This document shows positions 1 to 7,736 of a stretch of 7,736 nucleotides of DNA, in pieces (positions within the stretch are counted from its first letter, which is position 1; each line of letters starts with the position of its first letter). The translations under genes were made by a program, and so were the position numbers. Source of the stretch: a virus (Duplodnaviria; Heunggongvirae; Uroviricota; Caudoviricetes); the IMG/VR virus record IMGVR_UViG_648276645_000001; one strand, written 5' to 3'. The notes beneath the pieces are model-generated. The model saw nothing but the letters and a program-made list of their open reading frames with translations. It was not told the origin of the DNA and did not search any database.

Positions 1-1284
1 TTACTTCTTCGCCTCTGCAACCACTTTACTACCCACGCCGCGGTTATTGTATTCCCACATGCGGTTGTAGTTAGTGTCATTCAGATTGCGCTGTATTTCG
101 TCGTTATCATCTACGCTGCCGGTATTACCCGCAAACGGACGATTAGAGATCACCGCATCGGCCCACGGTTTAGCCGTGTTAAAACCTTCGTTGATGGCGC
201 TATCACGGATCACCACCTGACCGTTGGTATTGGCATCAACATCCAGCGAGCGGCCCAGTTGCGCCACACCATCACCGAAAGCATTGAAACGGCTGTTTAC
301 GGCGAGGAAACCGTAGTAAATGTTGGACAGCGTAGCCGGTGCAAACACATACGCTTCTTGCTGAGTACGTGAGTTCACCACGCGGAATTCGGTGTTATCG
401 AACACCACTGCGCCGCGACCAGAAACGATATCCACATCCCCTTCAATGTAGCTGTTGGTCACCAGCGTACGCGGCTGACGATTTGTTTCCAGACGGTTCT
501 GCACACCGCTGTTGGTGACAAAGAAGGTGTTCTGACGACCGAGAATGTTAACGTTGTTAATCTGTACCTGGTCACCATCAGTACGCAGTGCCACCGCCGG
601 ATGGTTACCTGCATCTACGCTATCGCCCAGCGTGTTTTCGATGGTCAGATTTTGCAGTTGCAGGCCATTGTTTTGTGACCAGAAGACCGCAGAGCAGAGA
701 ACACCGATACTGTCGCTGCGTTTGCTCTGGCAGCTATCGTACATATACCACGCTGGTTTACCTGGCATATATTTGCCGCGCGGGTTGACGTCGTGACGCC
801 AGTCGGCAGGGCTCATGCCACCATCAAGGGAAAGCCCAATCTTCACATCAATCGGTTTTTCACCTGTACCGTACAGAGTAATTCCACCCGGAGCGGCAGG
901 GACATATACCGTTCCCTGATACTCACCAGGCATCACGGCAATATACTGGCGCTTGTTGGTACGCTTGATAATTGCCGCATCTACCGCCGCCTGAATCGTG
1001 GTATGCGTTACACCTTGAGTGCCCGCCGGGCCGACAACAAAGTCAGGTTGCGCAGGCAGGGTAATCGGGGAAGGATTCCACGCTGCAGCACCTGGTGTCA
1101 GGGATGCAAAATAGTGTTGAGCATCGAAATTCTGCGCTTCTTTTGCCGACAGAATCGGGCGAGAAGAGGTACCAGGCGCGGTTTGATCAGAAGGACGTTG
1201 ATCGGGCGGGGTTGAGCTACAGGCGGTCAGCGTCACGCCAAAAGCCAATGCCAGCGCCAGACGGGAAACTGAAAATGTGTTCAC
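1..1284 (-). CDS. ybhC: YbhC, pectinesterase-family outer-membrane lipoprotein (putative acyl-CoA thioesterase); host chromosomal gene flanking attB
   Basis: Complete 427-aa ORF. N-terminal signal peptide with lipobox LTAC (MNTFSVSRLALALAFGVTLTACSS). Translation matches my memory of E. coli YbhC, whose gene lies immediately next to lambda attB. Window starts exactly at its stop codon. Confidence 0.92.
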   Translation of the reverse strand: MNTFSVSRLALALAFGVTLTACSSTPPDQRPSDQTAPGTSSRPILSAKEAQNFDAQHYFASLTPGAAAWNPSPITLPAQPDFVVGPAGTQGVTHTTIQAAVDAAIIKRTNKRQYIAVMPGEYQGTVYVPAAPGGITLYGTGEKPIDVKIGLSLDGGMSPADWRHDVNPRGKYMPGKPAWYMYDSCQSKRSDSIGVLCSAVFWSQNNGLQLQNLTIENTLGDSVDAGNHPAVALRTDGDQVQINNVNILGRQNTFFVTNSGVQNRLETNRQPRTLVTNSYIEGDVDIVSGRGAVVFDNTEFRVVNSRTQQEAYVFAPATLSNIYYGFLAVNSRFNAFGDGVAQLGRSLDVDANTNGQVVIRDSAINEGFNTAKPWADAVISNRPFAGNTGSVDDNDEIQRNLNDTNYNRMWEYNNRGVGSKVVAEAKK

Positions 1285-1330: not shown

Positions 1331-1345
1331 GCTTTTTTATACTAA
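1331..1345. other. attL core (15-bp common core O of lambda site-specific recombination) at the host/prophage junction
   Basis: Exact GCTTTTTTATACTAA at 1331-1345. Left flank (gaagcct) reads like the bacterial B arm; right flank (gttggcattataaaaaagcattgc...) reads like the lambda P' arm, giving the BOP' arrangement. Confidence 0.9.
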
Positions 1346-1370
1346 GTTGGCATTATAAAAAAGCATTGCT

Positions 1371-1422
1371 TATCAATTTGTTGCAACGAACAGGTCACTA
1401 TCAGTCAAAATAAAATCATTAT
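1371..1422. promoter_or_regulatory. P' arm protein-binding sites: IHF site H' and three Int arm-type sites P'1-P'3
   Basis: TATCAATTTGTTG at 1371-1383 fits the IHF consensus WATCAANNNNTTR. Three consecutive arm-type-like decamers: caggtcactat (1391-1401), cagtcaaaat (1402-1411), aaaatcattat (1412-1422). Last site overlaps the int stop codon as in lambda. Confidence 0.75.
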
Positions 1423-2489
1423 TTGATTTCAATTTTGTCCCACTCCCTGCCTCTGTCATCACGATACTGTGATGCCATGGTGTCCGACTTATGCCCGAGA
1501 AGATGTTGAGCAAACTTATCGCTTATCTGCTTCTCATAGAGTCTTGCAGACAAACTGCGCAACTCGTGAAAGGTAGGCGGATCCCCTTCGAAGGAAAGAC
1601 CTGATGCTTTTCGTGCGCGCATAAAATACCTTGATACTGTGCCGGATGAAAGCGGTTCACGACGAGTAGATGCAATTATGGTTTCTCCGCCAAGAATCTC
1701 TTTGCATTTATCAAGTGTTTCCTTCATTGATATCCCGAGAGCATCAACATGCAATGTTGTTGGGATGGCAATTTTTACGCCTGTTTTGCTTTGCTCGACA
1801 TAAAGATATCCATCTACGATATCAGACCACTTCATTTCGCATAAATCACCAACTCGTTGCCCGGTAACAACAGCCAGTTCCATTGCAAGTCTGAGCCAAC
1901 ATGGTGATGATTCTGCTGCTTGATAAATTTTCAGGTATTCGTCAGCCGTAAGTCTTGATCTCCTTACCTCTGATTTTGCTGCGCGAGTGGCAGCGACAGG
2001 GTTTGTTGTTATATGGCCTTCAGCTATTGCCTCTCGGAATGCATCGCTCAGTGTTGATCTGATTAACTTGGCTGACGCCGCCTTGCCCTCGTCTATGTAT
2101 CCATTGAGCATTGCCGCAATTTCTTTTGTGGTGATGTCTTCAAGTGGAGCATCAGGCAGACCCCTCCTTATTGCTTTAATTTTGCTCATGTAATTTATGA
2201 GTGTCTTCTGCTTGATTCCTCTGCTGGCCAGGATTTTTTCGTAGCGATCAAGCCATGAATGTAACGTAACGGAATTATCACTGTTGATTCTCGCTGTCAG
2301 AGGCTTGTGTTTGTGTCCTGAAAATAACTCAATGTTGGCCTGTATGGCTTCAGTGATTGCGATTCGCCTGTCTCTGCCTAATCCAAACTCTTTACCCGTC
2401 CTTGGGTCCCTGTAGCAGTAATATCCATTGTTTCTTATATAAAGGTTAGGGGGTAAATCCCGGCGCTCATGACTTCGCCTTCTTCCCAT
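1419..2489 (-). CDS. int: Integrase (lambda Int, tyrosine recombinase)
   Basis: 356-aa ORF starting MGRRRSHERRDLPPNLYIRNNGYYCYRDPRTGKEF, which I recognise as lambda Int. Catalytic-region motifs present (HELRSL...R, HLLGHKSDTMASQYRDD with the Tyr nucleophile). Sits next to attL and overlaps xis by 23 bp as in lambda. Confidence 0.97.
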   Translation of the reverse strand: MGRRRSHERRDLPPNLYIRNNGYYCYRDPRTGKEFGLGRDRRIAITEAIQANIELFSGHKHKPLTARINSDNSVTLHSWLDRYEKILASRGIKQKTLINYMSKIKAIRRGLPDAPLEDITTKEIAAMLNGYIDEGKAASAKLIRSTLSDAFREAIAEGHITTNPVAATRAAKSEVRRSRLTADEYLKIYQAAESSPCWLRLAMELAVVTGQRVGDLCEMKWSDIVDGYLYVEQSKTGVKIAIPTTLHVDALGISMKETLDKCKEILGGETIIASTRREPLSSGTVSRYFMRARKASGLSFEGDPPTFHELRSLSARLYEKQISDKFAQHLLGHKSDTMASQYRDDRGREWDKIEIK

Positions 2490-2685
2490 TTCTGATCCTC
2501 TTCAAAAGGCTACCTGTTACTGGTCGATTTAAGTCAACCTTTACCGCTGATTCGTGGAACAGATATTCTCTTCCATCCTTAACCGGAGGAGGGAATATCC
2601 TGCATTCGCGCACCCATCGACGAACTGTTTCAAGGCTTCTTGGGCGTCGCTGGCGAGCGTTCCACTCCTGAAGTGTCAAGTACAT
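2467..2685 (-). CDS. xis: Excisionase (lambda Xis)
   Basis: 72-aa ORF MYLTLQEWNARQRRPRSLETVRRWVRECRIFPPP..., recognised as lambda Xis; 3' end overlaps the int start. Confidence 0.95.
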   Translation of the reverse strand: MYLTLQEWNARQRRPRSLETVRRWVRECRIFPPPVKDGREYLFHESAVKVDLNRPVTGSLLKRIRNGKKAKS

Positions 2686-2711
2686 CGCAAAGTCTCCGCA
2701 ATTACACGCAA
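2670..2711 (-). promoter_or_regulatory. pI-like promoter (cII-activated int promoter) with TTGC-N6-TTGC cII-binding repeats
   Basis: Minus strand reads TTGCGTGTAATTGCGGAGACTTTGCGATGTACTTGACA. TTGC tetrads at 2708-2711 and 2698-2701 (plus coordinates), overlapping the xis start as in lambda pI. Boundaries approximate. Confidence 0.6.
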
Positions 2712-2733
2712 GAAAAAACCGCCATCAGGCGGC
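2711..2733 (-). terminator. Putative intrinsic terminator hairpin (GC stem with 4-nt loop, then a T6 run on the minus strand)
   Basis: Minus strand CCGCC-TGAT-GGCGG followed by TTTTTT. Stem is only 5 bp. Overlaps the orf55 stop and sits just upstream of the pI -35 region. Lambda counterpart not certain (possibly a tL-series terminator). Confidence 0.4.
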
Positions 2734-2892
2734 TTGGTGTTCTTTCAGTTCTTCAATTCGAATATTGGTTATGTCTGCATGTGCTATCTGCGCCCATATC
2801 ATCCAGTGGTCGTAGCAGTCGTTGATGTTCTCCGCTTCGATAACTCTGTTGAATGGCTCTCCATTCCATTCTCCTGTGACTCGGAAGTGCAT
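2725..2892 (-). CDS. Small hypothetical protein (lambda orf55-like), 55 aa
   Basis: Not in the supplied ORF track (under 60 aa). Hand translation of the minus strand gives MHFRVTGEWNGEPFNRVIEAENINDCYDHWMIWAQIAHADITNIRIEELKEHQAA. Size and position (about 40 bp upstream of xis) match the small ORF annotated between xis and ea8.5 in lambda. Confidence 0.65.
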   Translation of the reverse strand: MHFRVTGEWNGEPFNRVIEAENINDCYDHWMIWAQIAHADITNIRIEELKEHQAA

Positions 2893-2980
2893 TTATCATC
2901 TCCATAAAACAAAACCCGCCGTAGCGAGTTCAGATAAAATAAATCCCCGCGAGTGCGAGGATTGTTATGTAATATTGGGT

Positions 2981-3262
2981 TTAATCATCTATATGTTTTG
3001 TACAGAGAGGGCAAGTATCGTTTCCACCGTACTCGTGATAATAATTTTGCACGGTATCAGTCATTTCTCGCACATTGCAGAATGGGGATTTGTCTTCATT
3101 AGACTTATAAACCTTCATGGAATATTTGTATGCCGACTCTATATCTATACCTTCATCTACATAAACACCTTCGTGATGTCTGCATGGAGACAAGACACCG
3201 GATCTGCACAACATTGATAACGCCCAATCTTTTTGCTCAGACTCTAACTCATTGATACTCAT
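2981..3262 (-). CDS. ea8.5: Ea8.5 protein (lambda early accessory protein, Cys/His-rich)
   Basis: 93-aa ORF MSINELESEQKDWALSMLCRSGVLSPCRHHEGVYVDEG...CPLCTKHIDD, recognised as lambda Ea8.5. AAGGAG RBS 7 nt upstream on the minus strand. Confidence 0.9.
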   Translation of the reverse strand: MSINELESEQKDWALSMLCRSGVLSPCRHHEGVYVDEGIDIESAYKYSMKVYKSNEDKSPFCNVREMTDTVQNYYHEYGGNDTCPLCTKHIDD

Positions 3263-3453
3263 TTATAAACTCCTTGCAATGTATGTCGTTTCAGCTAAAC
3301 GGTATCAGCAATGTTTATGTAAAGAAACAGTAAGATAATACTCAACCCGATGTTTGAGTACGGTCATCATCTGACACTACAGACTCTGGCATCGCTGTGA
3401 AGACGACGCGAAATTCAGCATTTTCACAAGCGTTATCTTTTACAAAACCGATC

Positions 3454-3765
3454 TCACTCTCCTTTGATGCGAATGCCAGCGTCAGACATCATATGCAGAT
3501 ACTCACCTGCATCCTGAACCCATTGACCTCCAACCCCGTAATAGCGATGCGTAATGATGTCGATAGTTACTAACGGGTCTTGTTCGATTAACTGCCGCAG
3601 AAACTCTTCCAGGTCACCAGTGCAGTGCTTGATAACAGGAGTCTTCCCAGGATGGCGAACAACAAGAAACTGGTTTCCGTCTTCACGGACTTCGTTGCTT
3701 TCCAGTTTAGCAATACGCTTAACAGAAAGGCCGGGAAATACCCAGCCTCGCTTTGTAACGGAGTA
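3454..3765 (-). pseudogene. ea22: ea22 C-terminal fragment (5'-truncated); fused in frame to antisense O sequence, giving a 179-aa chimeric ORF (3454..3993)
   Basis: C-terminal ~90 codons (KRIAKLESNEVREDGNQFLVVRHPGKTPVIKHC...DAGIRIKGE) read as real protein and lie 192 bp from ea8.5, the lambda spacing. The N-terminal ~90 codons (MFVRSSFGLLAVTTACCLLRL...) are low-complexity and are the reverse strand of O coding sequence. Upper boundary is approximate (junction between about 3720 and 3772). Confidence 0.65.
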
Positions 3766-3766
3766 G

Positions 3767-4021
3767 ACGAAAGTGATCGCACCTAACGATATCCGCCTGA
3801 TGCGTGAACGTGACGGACGTAACCACCGCGACATGTGCGTGCTGTTCCGCTGGGCCTGCCAGGACAACTTCTGGTCCGGTAACGTGCTGAGTCCGGCCAA
3901 ACTCCGCGACAAGTGGACCCAGCTCGAAATCAACCGTAACAAGCAACAGGCAGTCGTGACAGCCAGCAAACCAAAACTCGACCTGACAAACACAGACTGG
4001 ATTTACGGGGTGGATCTATGA
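3767..4021 (+). pseudogene. O: Replication initiator O, C-terminal fragment only (P-interaction domain); N-terminus and ori absent
   Basis: Open frame begins just after an in-frame TAG at 3764-3766. Translation ...IAPNDIRLMRERDGRNHRDMCVLFRWACQDNFWSGNVLSPAKLRDKWTQLEINRNKQQAVVTASKPKLDLTNTDWIYGVDL matches my memory of the lambda O C-terminus. Stop overlaps the P start (ATGA). No ori iterons or AT-rich region upstream. Confidence 0.85.
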
Positions 4022-4719
4022 AAAACATCGCCGCACAGATGGTTAACTTTGACCGTGAGCAGATGCGTCGGATCGCCAACAACATGCCGGAACAGTACGA
4101 CGAAAAGCCGCAGGTACAGCAGGTAGCGCAGATCATCAACGGTGTGTTCAGCCAGTTACTGGCAACTTTCCCGGCGAGCCTGGCTAACCGTGACCAGAAC
4201 GAACTGAACGAAATCCGCCGCCAGTGGGTGCTGGCTTTCCGGGAAAACGGGATCACCACAATGGAACAGGTTAACGCAGGAATGCGCGTAGCCCGTCGGC
4301 AGAATCGACCATTTCTGCCATCACCCGGGCAGTTTGTTGCATGGTGCCGGGAAGAAGCATCCGTTATCGCCGGACTACCAAACGTCAGCGAGCTGGTTGA
4401 TATGGTTTACGAGTATTGCCGGAAGCGAGGCCTGTATCCGGATGCGGAGTCTTATCCGTGGAAATCAAACGCGCACTACTGGCTGGTTACCAACCTGTAT
4501 CAGAACATGAGGGCCAATGCGCTTACTGATGCGGAATTACGCCGTAAGGCCGCAGATGAGCTTGTCCATATGACTGCGAGAATTAACCGTGGTGAGGCGA
4601 TCCCTGAACCAGTAAAACAACTTCCTGTCATGGGCGGTAGACCTCTAAATCGTGCACAGGCTCTGGCGAAGATCGCAGAAATCAAAGCTAAGTTTGGGCT
4701 GAAAGGAGCAAGTGTATGA
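4018..4719 (+). CDS. P: Replication protein P (DnaB helicase loader)
   Basis: 233-aa ORF MKNIAAQMVNFDREQMRRIANNMPEQYDEKPQVQQVAQIINGVFSQLL..., recognised as lambda P with the lambda length; translationally coupled to O' and ren. Confidence 0.96.
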   Translation: MKNIAAQMVNFDREQMRRIANNMPEQYDEKPQVQQVAQIINGVFSQLLATFPASLANRDQNELNEIRRQWVLAFRENGITTMEQVNAGMRVARRQNRPFLPSPGQFVAWCREEASVIAGLPNVSELVDMVYEYCRKRGLYPDAESYPWKSNAHYWLVTNLYQNMRANALTDAELRRKAADELVHMTARINRGEAIPEPVKQLPVMGGRPLNRAQALAKIAEIKAKFGLKGASV

Positions 4720-5006
4720 CGGGCAAAGAGGCAATTATTTATTACCTGGGGACGCATAAGAGCTTCTGTGCGCAGGACGTTGCCGCGGTAACAGGCGCAA
4801 CAGTAACCAGCATAAATCAGGCTGCGGCTAAAATGGCACGGGCAGGTCTTCTGGTTATCGAAGGTAAGGTCTGGCGAACGGTGTATTACCGGTTTGCTAC
4901 CAGGGAAGAACGGGAAGGAAAGATGAGCACGAACCTGATTTTTAAGGAGTGTCGCCAGAGTGCCGCGATGAAACGGGTATTGGCGGTATATGGAGTTAAA
5001 AGATGA
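4716..5006 (+). CDS. ren: Ren protein (protects against Rex exclusion)
   Basis: 96-aa ORF MTGKEAIIYYLGTHKSFCAQDVAAVTGATVTSINQAAAKMARAGLLVIEGK..., lambda Ren-like. AAGGAG RBS at 4699-4704; start overlaps the P stop. Confidence 0.92.
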   Translation: MTGKEAIIYYLGTHKSFCAQDVAAVTGATVTSINQAAAKMARAGLLVIEGKVWRTVYYRFATREEREGKMSTNLIFKECRQSAAMKRVLAVYGVKR

Positions 5007-5030
5007 CCATCTACATTACTGAGCTAATAA

Positions 5031-5066
5031 CAGGCCTGCTAGTAATCGCAGGCCTTTTTATTTGGG
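5031..5066 (+). terminator. Rho-independent terminator, lambda tR2-like
   Basis: 8-bp stem AGGCCTGC (5032-5039) pairing with GCAGGCCT (5048-5055), 8-nt loop, followed by TTTTTATTT. Located between ren and ninB, where tR2 sits in lambda. Confidence 0.8.
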
Positions 5067-5079
5067 GGAGAGGGAAGTC

Positions 5080-5520
5080 ATGAAAAAACTAACCTTTGAA
5101 ATTCGATCTCCAGCACATCAGCAAAACGCTATTCACGCAGTACAGCAAATCCTTCCAGACCCAACCAAACCAATCGTAGTAACCATTCAGGAACGCAACC
5201 GCAGCTTAGACCAAAACAGGAAGCTATGGGCCTGCTTAGGTGACGTCTCTCGTCAGGTTGAATGGCATGGTCGCTGGCTGGATGCAGAAAGCTGGAAGTG
5301 TGTGTTTACCGCAGCATTAAAGCAGCAGGATGTTGTTCCTAACCTTGCCGGGAATGGCTTTGTGGTAATAGGCCAGTCAACCAGCAGGATGCGTGTAGGC
5401 GAATTTGCGGAGCTATTAGAGCTTATACAGGCATTCGGTACAGAGCGTGGCGTTAAGTGGTCAGACGAAGCGAGACTGGCTCTGGAGTGGAAAGCGAGAT
5501 GGGGAGATCGGGCTGCATGA
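5080..5520 (+). CDS. ninB: NinB (Orf-family recombination mediator)
   Basis: 146 aa from ATG 5080 (MKKLTFEIRSPAHQQNAIHAVQQILPDPTKP...), lambda NinB-like with matching length. RBS GGGAGAGGGAAG upstream. The track ORF from 5062 uses an upstream TTG that I regard as not the real start. Confidence 0.92.
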   Translation: MKKLTFEIRSPAHQQNAIHAVQQILPDPTKPIVVTIQERNRSLDQNRKLWACLGDVSRQVEWHGRWLDAESWKCVFTAALKQQDVVPNLAGNGFVVIGQSTSRMRVGEFAELLELIQAFGTERGVKWSDEARLALEWKARWGDRAA

Positions 5521-6044
5521 CTATCAAATCAAATACGCCAGCACACGACAAGGACTGCTGGCAAACGCCGCTTTGGCTTTTTGATGCACTGGATATTGAG
5601 TTTGGATTCTGGCTGGATTCGGCAGCGAGCGACAAAAATGCTCTGTGTGCTCACTGGCTAACTGAGGCCGACGACGCGCTCAATTCTGAGTGGGTAAGCC
5701 ACGGTGCAATCTGGAATAACCCACCGTACAGCAATATCAGGCCGTGGGTGGAAAAAGCCGCTGAGCAGTGCATACAACAGCGACAGACGGTAGTGATGCT
5801 TGTGCCAGAGGATATGTCAGTCGGATGGTTCAGCAAGGCTCTGGAGAGTGTCGACGAAGTTCGCATTATCACTGATGGACGGATTAATTTTATCGAACCA
5901 TCGACGGGGCTGGAGAAGAAGGGAAACAGCAAAGGCTCCATGCTGCTGATTTGGCGACCGTTCATCAGTCCTCGACGGATGTTTACTACCGTATCCAAAG
6001 CGGCATTGATGGCGATCGGGCAGGGCGTCAGGAGGGCGGCATGA
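5517..6044 (+). CDS. Phage-type DNA N6-adenine methyltransferase (Dam family, orphan)
   Basis: 175 aa from ATG 5517, overlapping the ninB stop (ATGA): [34 protein letters not shown]... Contains the NPPY motif (WNNPPYSN) typical of N6-adenine methyltransferases. Occupies the position held by ninC in lambda. No restriction endonuclease gene nearby. Confidence 0.85.
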
Positions 6045-6217
6045 GGCGACAGCGACGAAGTTTCACCGACATCATCTGCGAAAACTGCAAATACCTTCCA
6101 ACGAAACGCTCCAGAAATAAACGCAAGCCAATCCCAAAAGAATCTGACGTAAAAACCTTCAATTACACAGCTCACCTGTGGGATATCCGGTGGCTAAGAT
6201 ATCGTGCGAGGAAATGA
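6041..6217 (+). CDS. ninE: NinE
   Basis: 58 aa from ATG 6041: [58 protein letters not shown], lambda NinE-like. GGAGGG RBS at 6031-6036; start overlaps the methyltransferase stop. Confidence 0.85.
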
Positions 6218-6219
6218 CA

Positions 6220-6561
6220 ATGGATTATTCACAGTTAAGTGATTTTGAAATTAACAGAATGGTAGGAGACATAATTTTTAAAGGCCTTTGGGCAAGTAAA
6301 CCGGAAACATCAGGGAATAACACCAACAAATGGTATTACGGAAATGCTGATACAACTTTTGAGCCATTAAATCATTTGCCTGACTACTGCAATGATCCGA
6401 GCGCTTCATGGCCGATTATTGAGAAATACAGGATTTCTATCTTAGACCAGTTAACTGAATGGTGTGTGGATGCAAAAGGCGTAAGCCCAATATTTGATAC
6501 CAGACCTCTCCGCGCCGCCATGATTGTCTTTCTCCTGATGCAGGAGGCCAATAATGCTTAG
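6220..6561 (+). CDS. Hypothetical nin-region phage protein, 113 aa (possibly DUF2591-like; function unknown)
   Basis: [116 protein letters not shown]. Start chosen at ATG 6220 because GAGGAA (6208-6213) is 6 nt upstream; the ATG at 6214 abuts the RBS. Family assignment is from memory only. Confidence 0.6.
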
Positions 6562-6748
6562 CCCATCTCAATCCCTTCAATACCTGAAAGGAAGCATAGA
6601 GCGGGCTTCAATGTGCACAGAGTGGATTCTATCTAGGTTTAGCGCATACAGAAGATTGCCGGTAAAGGGCATGCCAAGCAAGTCGATGCTGCATATGCAA
6701 AAGAATGCGCGCTGGAAGGTATGGCGAGAACACAGGTTATCTGGCTGA
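6554..6748 (+). CDS. NinF-like small protein with a divergent C-terminus (mosaic), 64 aa
   Basis: Strong AGGAGG RBS at 6542-6547, 6 nt before the ATG. First ~20 residues ([18 protein letters not shown]) resemble the NinF N-terminus I recall from lambdoid phages. The remainder ([46 protein letters not shown]) lacks the Cys-rich motif of NinF. Overlaps the preceding ORF by 8 bp. Confidence 0.5.
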
Positions 6749-6767
6749 AAGAGGGGGTTATTAAGGC

Positions 6768-7130
6768 GTGAATACCTACAGCATCACATTACCCTGGCCT
6801 CCGAGCAATAACCGCTACTACCGGCATAATCGCGGGCGCACGCACATCAGCGCAGAAGGGCAGGCATACCGTGATAACGTCGCCCGAATCATTAAAAACG
6901 CAATGCTGGATATCGGCCTGGCTATGCCTGTGAAAATCCGCATTGAGTGCCACATGCCGGATCGCCGTCGCCGTGACCTGGATAATCTGCAAAAAGCCGC
7001 TTTTGACGCACTCACTAAAGCAGGTTTCTGGCTGGATGATGCTCAGGTCGTTGATTACCGCGTTGTGAAGATGCCTGTTACCAAAGGTGGGAGGCTGGAA
7101 CTGACCATCACCGAAATGGGGAATGAATGA
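6768..7130 (+). CDS. rusA: RusA Holliday-junction resolvase (endodeoxyribonuclease RusA)
   Basis: 120-aa ORF with GTG start: [97 protein letters not shown]..., recognised as RusA of the DLP12/phage-82 type. RBS AGAGGGGG upstream. Confidence 0.92.
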
Positions 7131-7267
7131 TGTTTGAGTTTAATATGGCAGAACTTCTTCGCCACCGCTGGGGGCGTCTGCGCTTATATCGTTTCCCCGG
7201 TTCTGTTTTGACCGATTACCGAATACTGAAGAATTACGCCAAAACCCTGACAGGAGCAGGAGTATGA
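7127..7267 (+). CDS. ylcG: YlcG-like small protein (46 aa)
   Basis: Not in the ORF track (under 60 aa). Hand translation from ATG 7127 gives [46 protein letters not shown], stop TGA 7265-7267. Start overlaps the rusA stop. Matches the small gene found between rusA and the Q-like gene in DLP12-type prophages. Confidence 0.75.
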
Positions 7268-7352
7268 AGTCAGAGATAACAATCAACTAATACTGTTTTG
7301 TTGATTTTTGCTTGTAATTGGCGTTTTGGTCTGATTTTTGTGGAGTAAGTTG

Positions 7353-7736
7353 ATGCGTGATATTCAGATGGTTCTTGAGCGTTGGGGAGCGTGGGCGGCT
7401 AATAATCATGAAGATGTGACCTGGTCGTCCATTGCCGCCGGTTTTAAGGGATTAATTCCTTCAAAAGTAAAATCTCGCCCGCAATGTTGTGACGATGACG
7501 CGATGATCATTTGCGGGTGCATGGCCCGTCTGAAAAAGAACAACAGCGATTTGCACGATTTATTAGTAGATTATTATATAGTCGGTATGACATTCATGTC
7601 ACTGGCAGGTAAGCATTGCTGCTCTGATGGTTATATCGGGAAAAGGTTACAAAAGGCTGAGGGCATAATTGAAGGGATGTTAATGGCATTAGATATCCGG
7701 TTAGAGATGGATATCGTTGTTAATAACTCTAATTAA
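7353..7736 (+). CDS. Q: Late-gene antiterminator Q (QuuD / phage-82-type Q)
   Basis: 127 aa from ATG 7353 (GGAG RBS at 7342-7345): [62 protein letters not shown]..., recognised as QuuD-like Q. Stop TAA is the last three bases of the window. Confidence 0.9.

Follow-up and report, generated by a model that had tools for sequence, protein, structure and literature searches.

What a methyltransferase gene is doing in a prophage that appears beyond induction, and which DNA sequence its product would modify, are the questions raised by positions 5517 to 6044 of the viral record IMGVR_UViG_648276645_000001, a stretch of 7,736 nucleotides (nt) that was analysed at its full length and is hereafter called the window. 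The first-pass annotation had described the open reading frame (ORF) at this locus as an orphan phage N6-adenine methyltransferase of the nin region, translationally coupled to ninB and ninE, and had listed as open questions its target specificity and whether it is expressed from a cryptic prophage and thereby alters the host methylome. Our results make it very probable that the locus encodes an intact, small phage Dam-family enzyme, an S-adenosylmethionine (SAM)-dependent N6-adenine methyltransferase that is M.EcoVT2Dam with GATC as its target, carried as a silent passenger in a defective prophage.

Assignment of the product to the phage enzyme family is supported by full-length profile matches. 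The protein aligned to positions 1–167 of the 169 in PF05869 ('DNA N-6-adenine-methyltransferase (Dam)'; 6.4e-65, 218.4 bits, cut-off 28.1 bits) and to all 165 positions of NCBIfam TIGR01712 ('phage N-6-adenine-methyltransferase'; 265.9 bits, equivalog cut-off 97.05 bits), and phrog_111 (PHROG 111, 'DNA methyltransferase') was also matched. Scores of 218 bits to PF05869 and 266 bits to TIGR01712 argue that the methyltransferase ORF is not a chance reading frame, and the profile search that had been suggested as a check therefore bears out the annotated function. The NPPY catalytic motif noted earlier is indeed present as N68-P69-P70-Y71 and is the sole [DNS]PP[YFW] motif among all ORFs of the window. 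None of the catalytic residues is lost on alignment, NPPY and D34 being invariant. The latter is the putative SAM-binding acidic residue, as judged from the general motif pattern of N6-methyltransferases; T17, P18, L33, D34 and A36/A37 are conserved, leaving the N-terminal TP...LD.AA block intact, and the AF2 model is poor at residues 34–40 (pLDDT <50). Five blocks (TP...LD.AA, W.NPPYS, ML...D.S..WF, R..F and N.KG) are common to T1 Dam, F108 Dam and 29 enterobacterial homologues, and tblastn recovered relatives in 2134 phage records, T1 Dam and the HP1-type Dam of Pasteurella phage F108 among them.

The specificity of the enzyme, listed as open by the first-pass annotation, had in fact already been reported for an identical protein. 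All 175 of 175 residues coincide with those of orf32 (NP_050531) of the Stx2 phage VT2-Sakai, and the DNA of the two is 98.6% identical across 5510–6214. Since orf32 is the only annotated methyltransferase of VT2-Sakai, and no other ORF in the 60,942 bp of this phage has a (D/N/S)PP(Y/F/W) motif, we take it to be the enzyme named M.EcoVT2Dam in REBASE; orf3-5 of the same phage was considered as a second methyltransferase and rejected, only DUF551 being found there. M.EcoVT2Dam has 5'-GATC-3' as its known target according to a passage of PMC6602927, a passage of PMC7139368 lists VT-2 among phages with dam-like (GATC) activity shown, and a passage of PMC7556043 places VT-2 among phages encoding Dam-like proteins, all three citing Radlinska & Bujnicki 2001 (PMID 11720311). 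Moreover, sequencing by the single-molecule real-time (SMRT) method, applied to an Escherichia coli strain that produces Shiga toxin (STEC) and has two 99%-identical copies, gave no motif attributable to them except GATC (PMC6602927). As far as sequence identity carries over, the question of specificity is thus largely answered: the enzyme would duplicate the specificity of host Dam, and therefore no new methylome motif is expected. The gene is, in this sense, ordinary, and the annotation pipeline of NCBI names it correctly as a matter of routine, an identical protein having been cloned and assigned to GATC before.

This shared specificity does not reflect common descent that could be detected. 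PF05869 was the only Pfam match of the enzyme; PF02086 (D12 class) gave no match at E<=0.01 and the MT-A70 domain none in the same scan. Neither a search of PDB sequences with the protein (phmmer) nor one with a 30-sequence profile recovered EcoDam, T4Dam or DpnM at E<=1; SdiA and designed proteins that surfaced in the PDB searches were chance matches only (E>0.2). The enzyme would thus act like Dam yet falls outside the PF02086 Dam family and, because its sequence is unrelated to those of E. coli Dam, T4 Dam and DpnM, the GATC specificity that it shares with E. coli Dam would be convergent. PF05869 enzymes are among the smallest DNA methyltransferases and have no separate recognition domain; no experimentally solved structure of the family is detectable by sequence or fold, a structural gap that is not specific to the window.

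We then consider the element that carries the gene, which had been called a cryptic prophage. Comparison with lambda (blastn and the lambda feature table) confirms this description and resolves it into two deletions, with lambda 30115–31257 and 31324–39346 absent. Lost with them are exo, bet, gam, kil, cIII, N, rexAB, cI, cro, cII, the pL/pR operators, the 5' half of O and the ori iterons. Without its immunity region and without N, pL, pR and ori, the element is predicted to be unable to be induced or to replicate. The deletions also created a fused minus-strand ORF in the 3454–4021 region (126–179 amino acids (aa); a DUF1317 fragment joined to the Ea22 C-terminus) and left a plus-strand O remnant of 82 aa (3773–4021). 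Both junctions together occur in 0 of 5426 complete RefSeq E. coli genomes; in one of these, that of strain RM10410, the orf60a-O junction is present at 96% identity, and the first junction has no exact match in species-representative genomes. The one place where the exact two-junction arrangement was found is draft assembly GCA_000176535.2, to whose scaffold GL883782.1 the window is 100% identical.

These losses bear directly on expression. In complete lambdoid phages dam would be a delayed-early nin gene, transcribed from pR once N permits passage through tR2 and translated in series with ninB and ninE by way of ATGA stop/start overlaps. The strong intrinsic terminator between ren and ninB, delimited as 5032–5065 or as 5032–5055, has the position of lambda tR2, lies inside a lambda block of 98.6% identity and sits 25 nt upstream of ninB; its fold energy is −16.8 kcal/mol, with a z-score of only −1.4. 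This tR2-type terminator has stayed intact, while the N antiterminator gene has been deleted together with the nut sites. Because pR and N are missing while tR2 is retained, the window copy of dam is most likely transcriptionally silent, or nearly so. In line with this, no sigma-70-like promoter was found on the plus strand between 2600 and 7549, by a crude consensus match that a weak or non-sigma-70 promoter, or read-through, could escape.

Evidence from phage Phi24B, whose 'dam' (CM2) product is identical to the window protein, points both ways. The Phi24B gene is among those with a lytic-cycle-linked pattern in quantitative PCR (qPCR) and is not lysogen-restricted, and the identical protein was recognised by antisera that had been raised against cultures of Phi24B lysogens; the authors speculated that it supplements host Dam (PMC3342100). 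The detection in lysogen cultures, together with an intact ORF identical to a phage enzyme and the consensus-only nature of the promoter scan, would suit a gene that the cryptic prophage still expresses, by way of an unrecognised internal promoter or read-through, and that adds measurably to host GATC methylation, for instance as a backup of Dam or in lysogen physiology. We nevertheless regard such expression as unlikely: pR, pL, N and cI are all deleted, tR2 stands 25 nt upstream of ninB, the plus strand upstream shows no sigma-70-like match and the Phi24B transcript follows the lytic cycle. Hence, the question of expression from the prophage is answered in part, in that the gene is lytic-linked in Phi24B and its early promoters and N are deleted here, silence of the window copy itself being what these facts suggest. 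The proposed change of the host methylome does not follow in either case, given that the mark is the same as that of host Dam: even if expressed, the gene would be predicted to add no new motif to the methylome of a dam+ host. M.EcoMIV of the ST131 strain EC958 was discarded as evidence for silence of prophage genes, as it is a PF02086 enzyme of a different family.

A further alternative concerns the substrate. It holds that GATC DNA is not the main target, the enzyme having relaxed or other DNA specificity or acting on RNA, and that the GATC activity is an artefact of over-expression. There is a precedent in an M.EcoGV-like MT-A70 enzyme of Stx phages, first a GATC methylase on over-expression and later mainly a 16S rRNA methyltransferase (PMC10810198), and with 175 aa the window enzyme has no separate target-recognition domain. 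That precedent, however, comes from another family than PF05869; T1 Dam, a member of the same family with 33% identity, is cited in a passage of PMC7139368 as a DNA methyltransferase that has been purified and characterised and has dam-like activity; and methylomes of STEC carrying the gene contain no unexplained motif (PMC6602927). We therefore give this alternative very little credence. M.EcoGV was likewise rejected as a homologue, being an MT-A70 enzyme at another phage position. Similarly slim is the chance of a secondary substrate (non-GATC DNA or RNA), or of conditional expression that alters GATC kinetics at protected or hemimethylated sites. That the ORF is a decaying relic with an inactive product, as its place in a heavily deleted, non-inducible remnant could suggest, is scarcely credible, since, compared with the allele of a functional phage (175/175), it is free of frameshifts, stops and substitutions and all invariant family residues are present.

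An active M.EcoVT2Dam-type enzyme with GATC specificity, as favoured here, would flip the GATC adenine into its NPPY pocket, following the chemistry of the N6-methyltransferase family, and move the methyl group of SAM to N6, which would yield G-m6A-TC, the same mark as that of host Dam from an unrelated, convergent enzyme. The sequence would be read by loops of the catalytic domain, because 175 residues leave no space for a separate recognition domain. Its role may be to keep fast-replicating phage DNA fully GATC-methylated despite limiting or absent host Dam. Lambda and P22 virion DNA is under-methylated by host Dam, possibly as replication outruns modification (PMC8022706), and stable lysogeny by 933W requires host Dam, as cited in a passage of PMC3342100. 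With moderate confidence, we infer that the enzyme tops up phage GATC methylation and frees the phage from the host Dam level. Some points weigh against the overall interpretation, namely that the GATC assignment of M.EcoVT2Dam is reported through secondary citations, that the promoter scan is as crude as stated above, and that the role of a phage GATC methylase in a Dam+ host is 'still not well understood' (PMC7556043). Why phages of dam+ hosts carry a convergent GATC methylase is not a question specific to the window.

The limits of the gene and its junctions with the neighbouring genes were also assessed (Table 1). A six-frame ORF list extends the frame mechanically to an upstream GTG at 5457, giving 195 aa. 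The PF05869 alignment opens at residue 4 of the product that starts at ATG 5517, M1 of this product is invariant, with all 29 aligned homologues beginning there, and the ATG overlaps the ninB stop in an ATGA; on these three grounds, ATG 5517 is assigned as the true start, as first annotated. The gene record of the source assembly lists a 195-aa methyltransferase that begins at GTG 5457 inside ninB, its N-terminus being 20 residues too long. GGAG is found at 5503–5506, 10 nt 5' of the dam ATG, and AGGAGG at 6030–6035, within the dam 3' end and 5 nt 5' of the ninE ATG. Of the coupling claimed earlier, the ATGA overlaps at both ends are thus real, and nin regions typically show such junctions (PMC8022706); the translational coupling of dam with ninB and ninE itself would be a probable consequence of this arrangement.

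Table 1. Coordinates of the methyltransferase gene, its motifs and the surrounding features in the window
Feature	Position	Strand	Basis or remark
Host ybhC	1-1284		Comparison map
att core GCTTTTTTATACTAA, ybhC-side prophage end (attL)	1331-1345	+	Lambda homology begins at lambda 27724, annotated recombination core
int, xis, ea8.5 and 3' part of ea22	1331-3721		Lambda 27724-30114, 99.4% identity
66-bp orf60a piece	3720-3785		Lambda 31258-31323; between two deletion scars
3' part of O, P, ren, ninB	3783-5520		Lambda 39347-41084, 98.6% identity; block ends at ninB stop
Intrinsic terminator between ren and ninB	5032-5065	+	Terminator scan; 8-bp stem with 6 G-C pairs, then TTTTTATTT (T-run)
ninB (orf), recombination mediator gene	5080-5520	+	PF05772, 2e-54
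dam-like gene, phage N-6-adenine DNA methyltransferase (predicted)	5517-6044	+	175 aa; ATG 5517, TGA 6042-6044; intact
ninB stop/dam start ATGA overlap	5517-5520	+	Sequence
D34 codon, 'LD.AA' motif	5616-5618	+	Invariant in 30 homologues, T1 Dam and F108 Dam
Catalytic motif IV codons, N68-P69-P70-Y71	5718-5729	+	Invariant in 30 homologues, T1 Dam and Pasteurella phage F108 Dam
dam stop/ninE start ATGA overlap	6041-6044	+	Sequence
ninE	6041-6217	+	PF05322, 3.4e-42; 95% identical to lambda 42097-42263

Several observations within or close to the gene stand on their own. A GATC site at 5506–5509 shares G5506, the last base of the Shine-Dalgarno-like GGAG, and the window as a whole holds 24 GATC sites versus ~30 expected from base composition, with no notable depletion or enrichment. 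An antisense ORF of 174 aa (5651–6175, minus strand) covers most of the methyltransferase gene; it was rejected as a real gene, since it matches no Pfam or PADLOC family, and is probably a chance ORF. Rfam models at gathering thresholds had no match in the window.

The position between ninB and ninE and the orphan status of the gene both hold. Pfam identifies the two neighbours (PF05772 and PF05322), and the gene order P-ren-terminator-ninB-dam-ninE-ninX-like-rusA-ylcG-Q reproduces the layout of a lambdoid nin region, between P/ren and Q, downstream of tR2 and with ATGA overlaps, which fits the description in PMC8022706. No restriction endonuclease or defence match was found by Pfam and PADLOC among the products of the window neighbours (NinB, NinE, NinX-like, RusA, YlcG, Q, Ren and P), nor any restriction endonuclease among the called source-scaffold genes lying up to 6 kb to the left or right of the fused ORF 3454–3834, and 'oMTase' (orphan methyltransferase) is the PADLOC model that the enzyme matches best. 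To the right of ninE (6220–7736) the sequence is not lambda-like and comprises a NinX-like gene (PF10765), a stretch of ~200 nt, rusA, a YlcG-like gene of 46 aa and Q; the ~200-nt stretch contains only a weak 64-aa ORF (6554–6748) that is absent from the calls of the source record. The stop of the Q antiterminator gene is the last codon of the window, and a porin gene and a holin gene follow further along the scaffold. The prophage is a mosaic of lambda and another lambdoid type.

The gene itself is widespread. Copies at >=95% nucleotide identity occur in 1566 of the 5426 complete E. coli genomes (~29%), a single genome holding as many as five, and on the phage side in 244 records, most of them from lambda-like and Stx-converting phages. 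Its RefSeq name is 'phage N-6-adenine-methyltransferase', and RefSeq places it between 'recombination protein NinB' and 'NinE family protein'.

Among known systems, the closest is M.EcoVT2Dam of VT2-Sakai, which occupies the same ninB/ninE slot with annotated 4-nt overlaps like those of the window gene; VT2-Sakai, however, is an inducible Stx phage, whereas the window element is what remains of a lambda-type prophage at att-lambda and lacks an immunity region. T1 Dam (YP_003925) and F108 Dam are likewise orphan phage enzymes of the PF05869/TIGR01712 type that share the five motif blocks, and the former is cited in a passage of PMC7139368 as GATC (dam-like) active. Both differ from the window enzyme in their modest identity to it (34–37%) and in lying outside a nin region, and T1 Dam is in addition longer by 45 residues at the N-terminus and contains insertions internally. 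No sequence relationship to the window enzyme is detectable for E. coli Dam and T4 Dam (PF02086, D12 class); PMC7139368, which also regards the shared specificity as convergent, counts no phage Dams except those of T2 and T4 as homologous to the host enzyme. M.EcoGV/M.EcoPA8orf6770P (MT-A70) is also an orphan Stx-phage methyltransferase reported as GATC-active when over-produced, but the M.EcoGV type belongs to a different family and genome position and was later shown to methylate chiefly rRNA and to require a partner protein (PMC10810198); such a gene can share a prophage with an M.EcoVT2Dam copy (PMC6602927). Finally, ninC/ninD of lambda stand where dam stands in the window, flanked by ninB and ninE, and their junction with ninB is likewise an ATGA, although NinC (290 aa, annotated as PAPS-reductase-like) is unrelated to dam. 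In the window, dam is a mosaic replacement of lambda ninC/ninD, after which the lambda sequence resumes at 95% identity with ninE.
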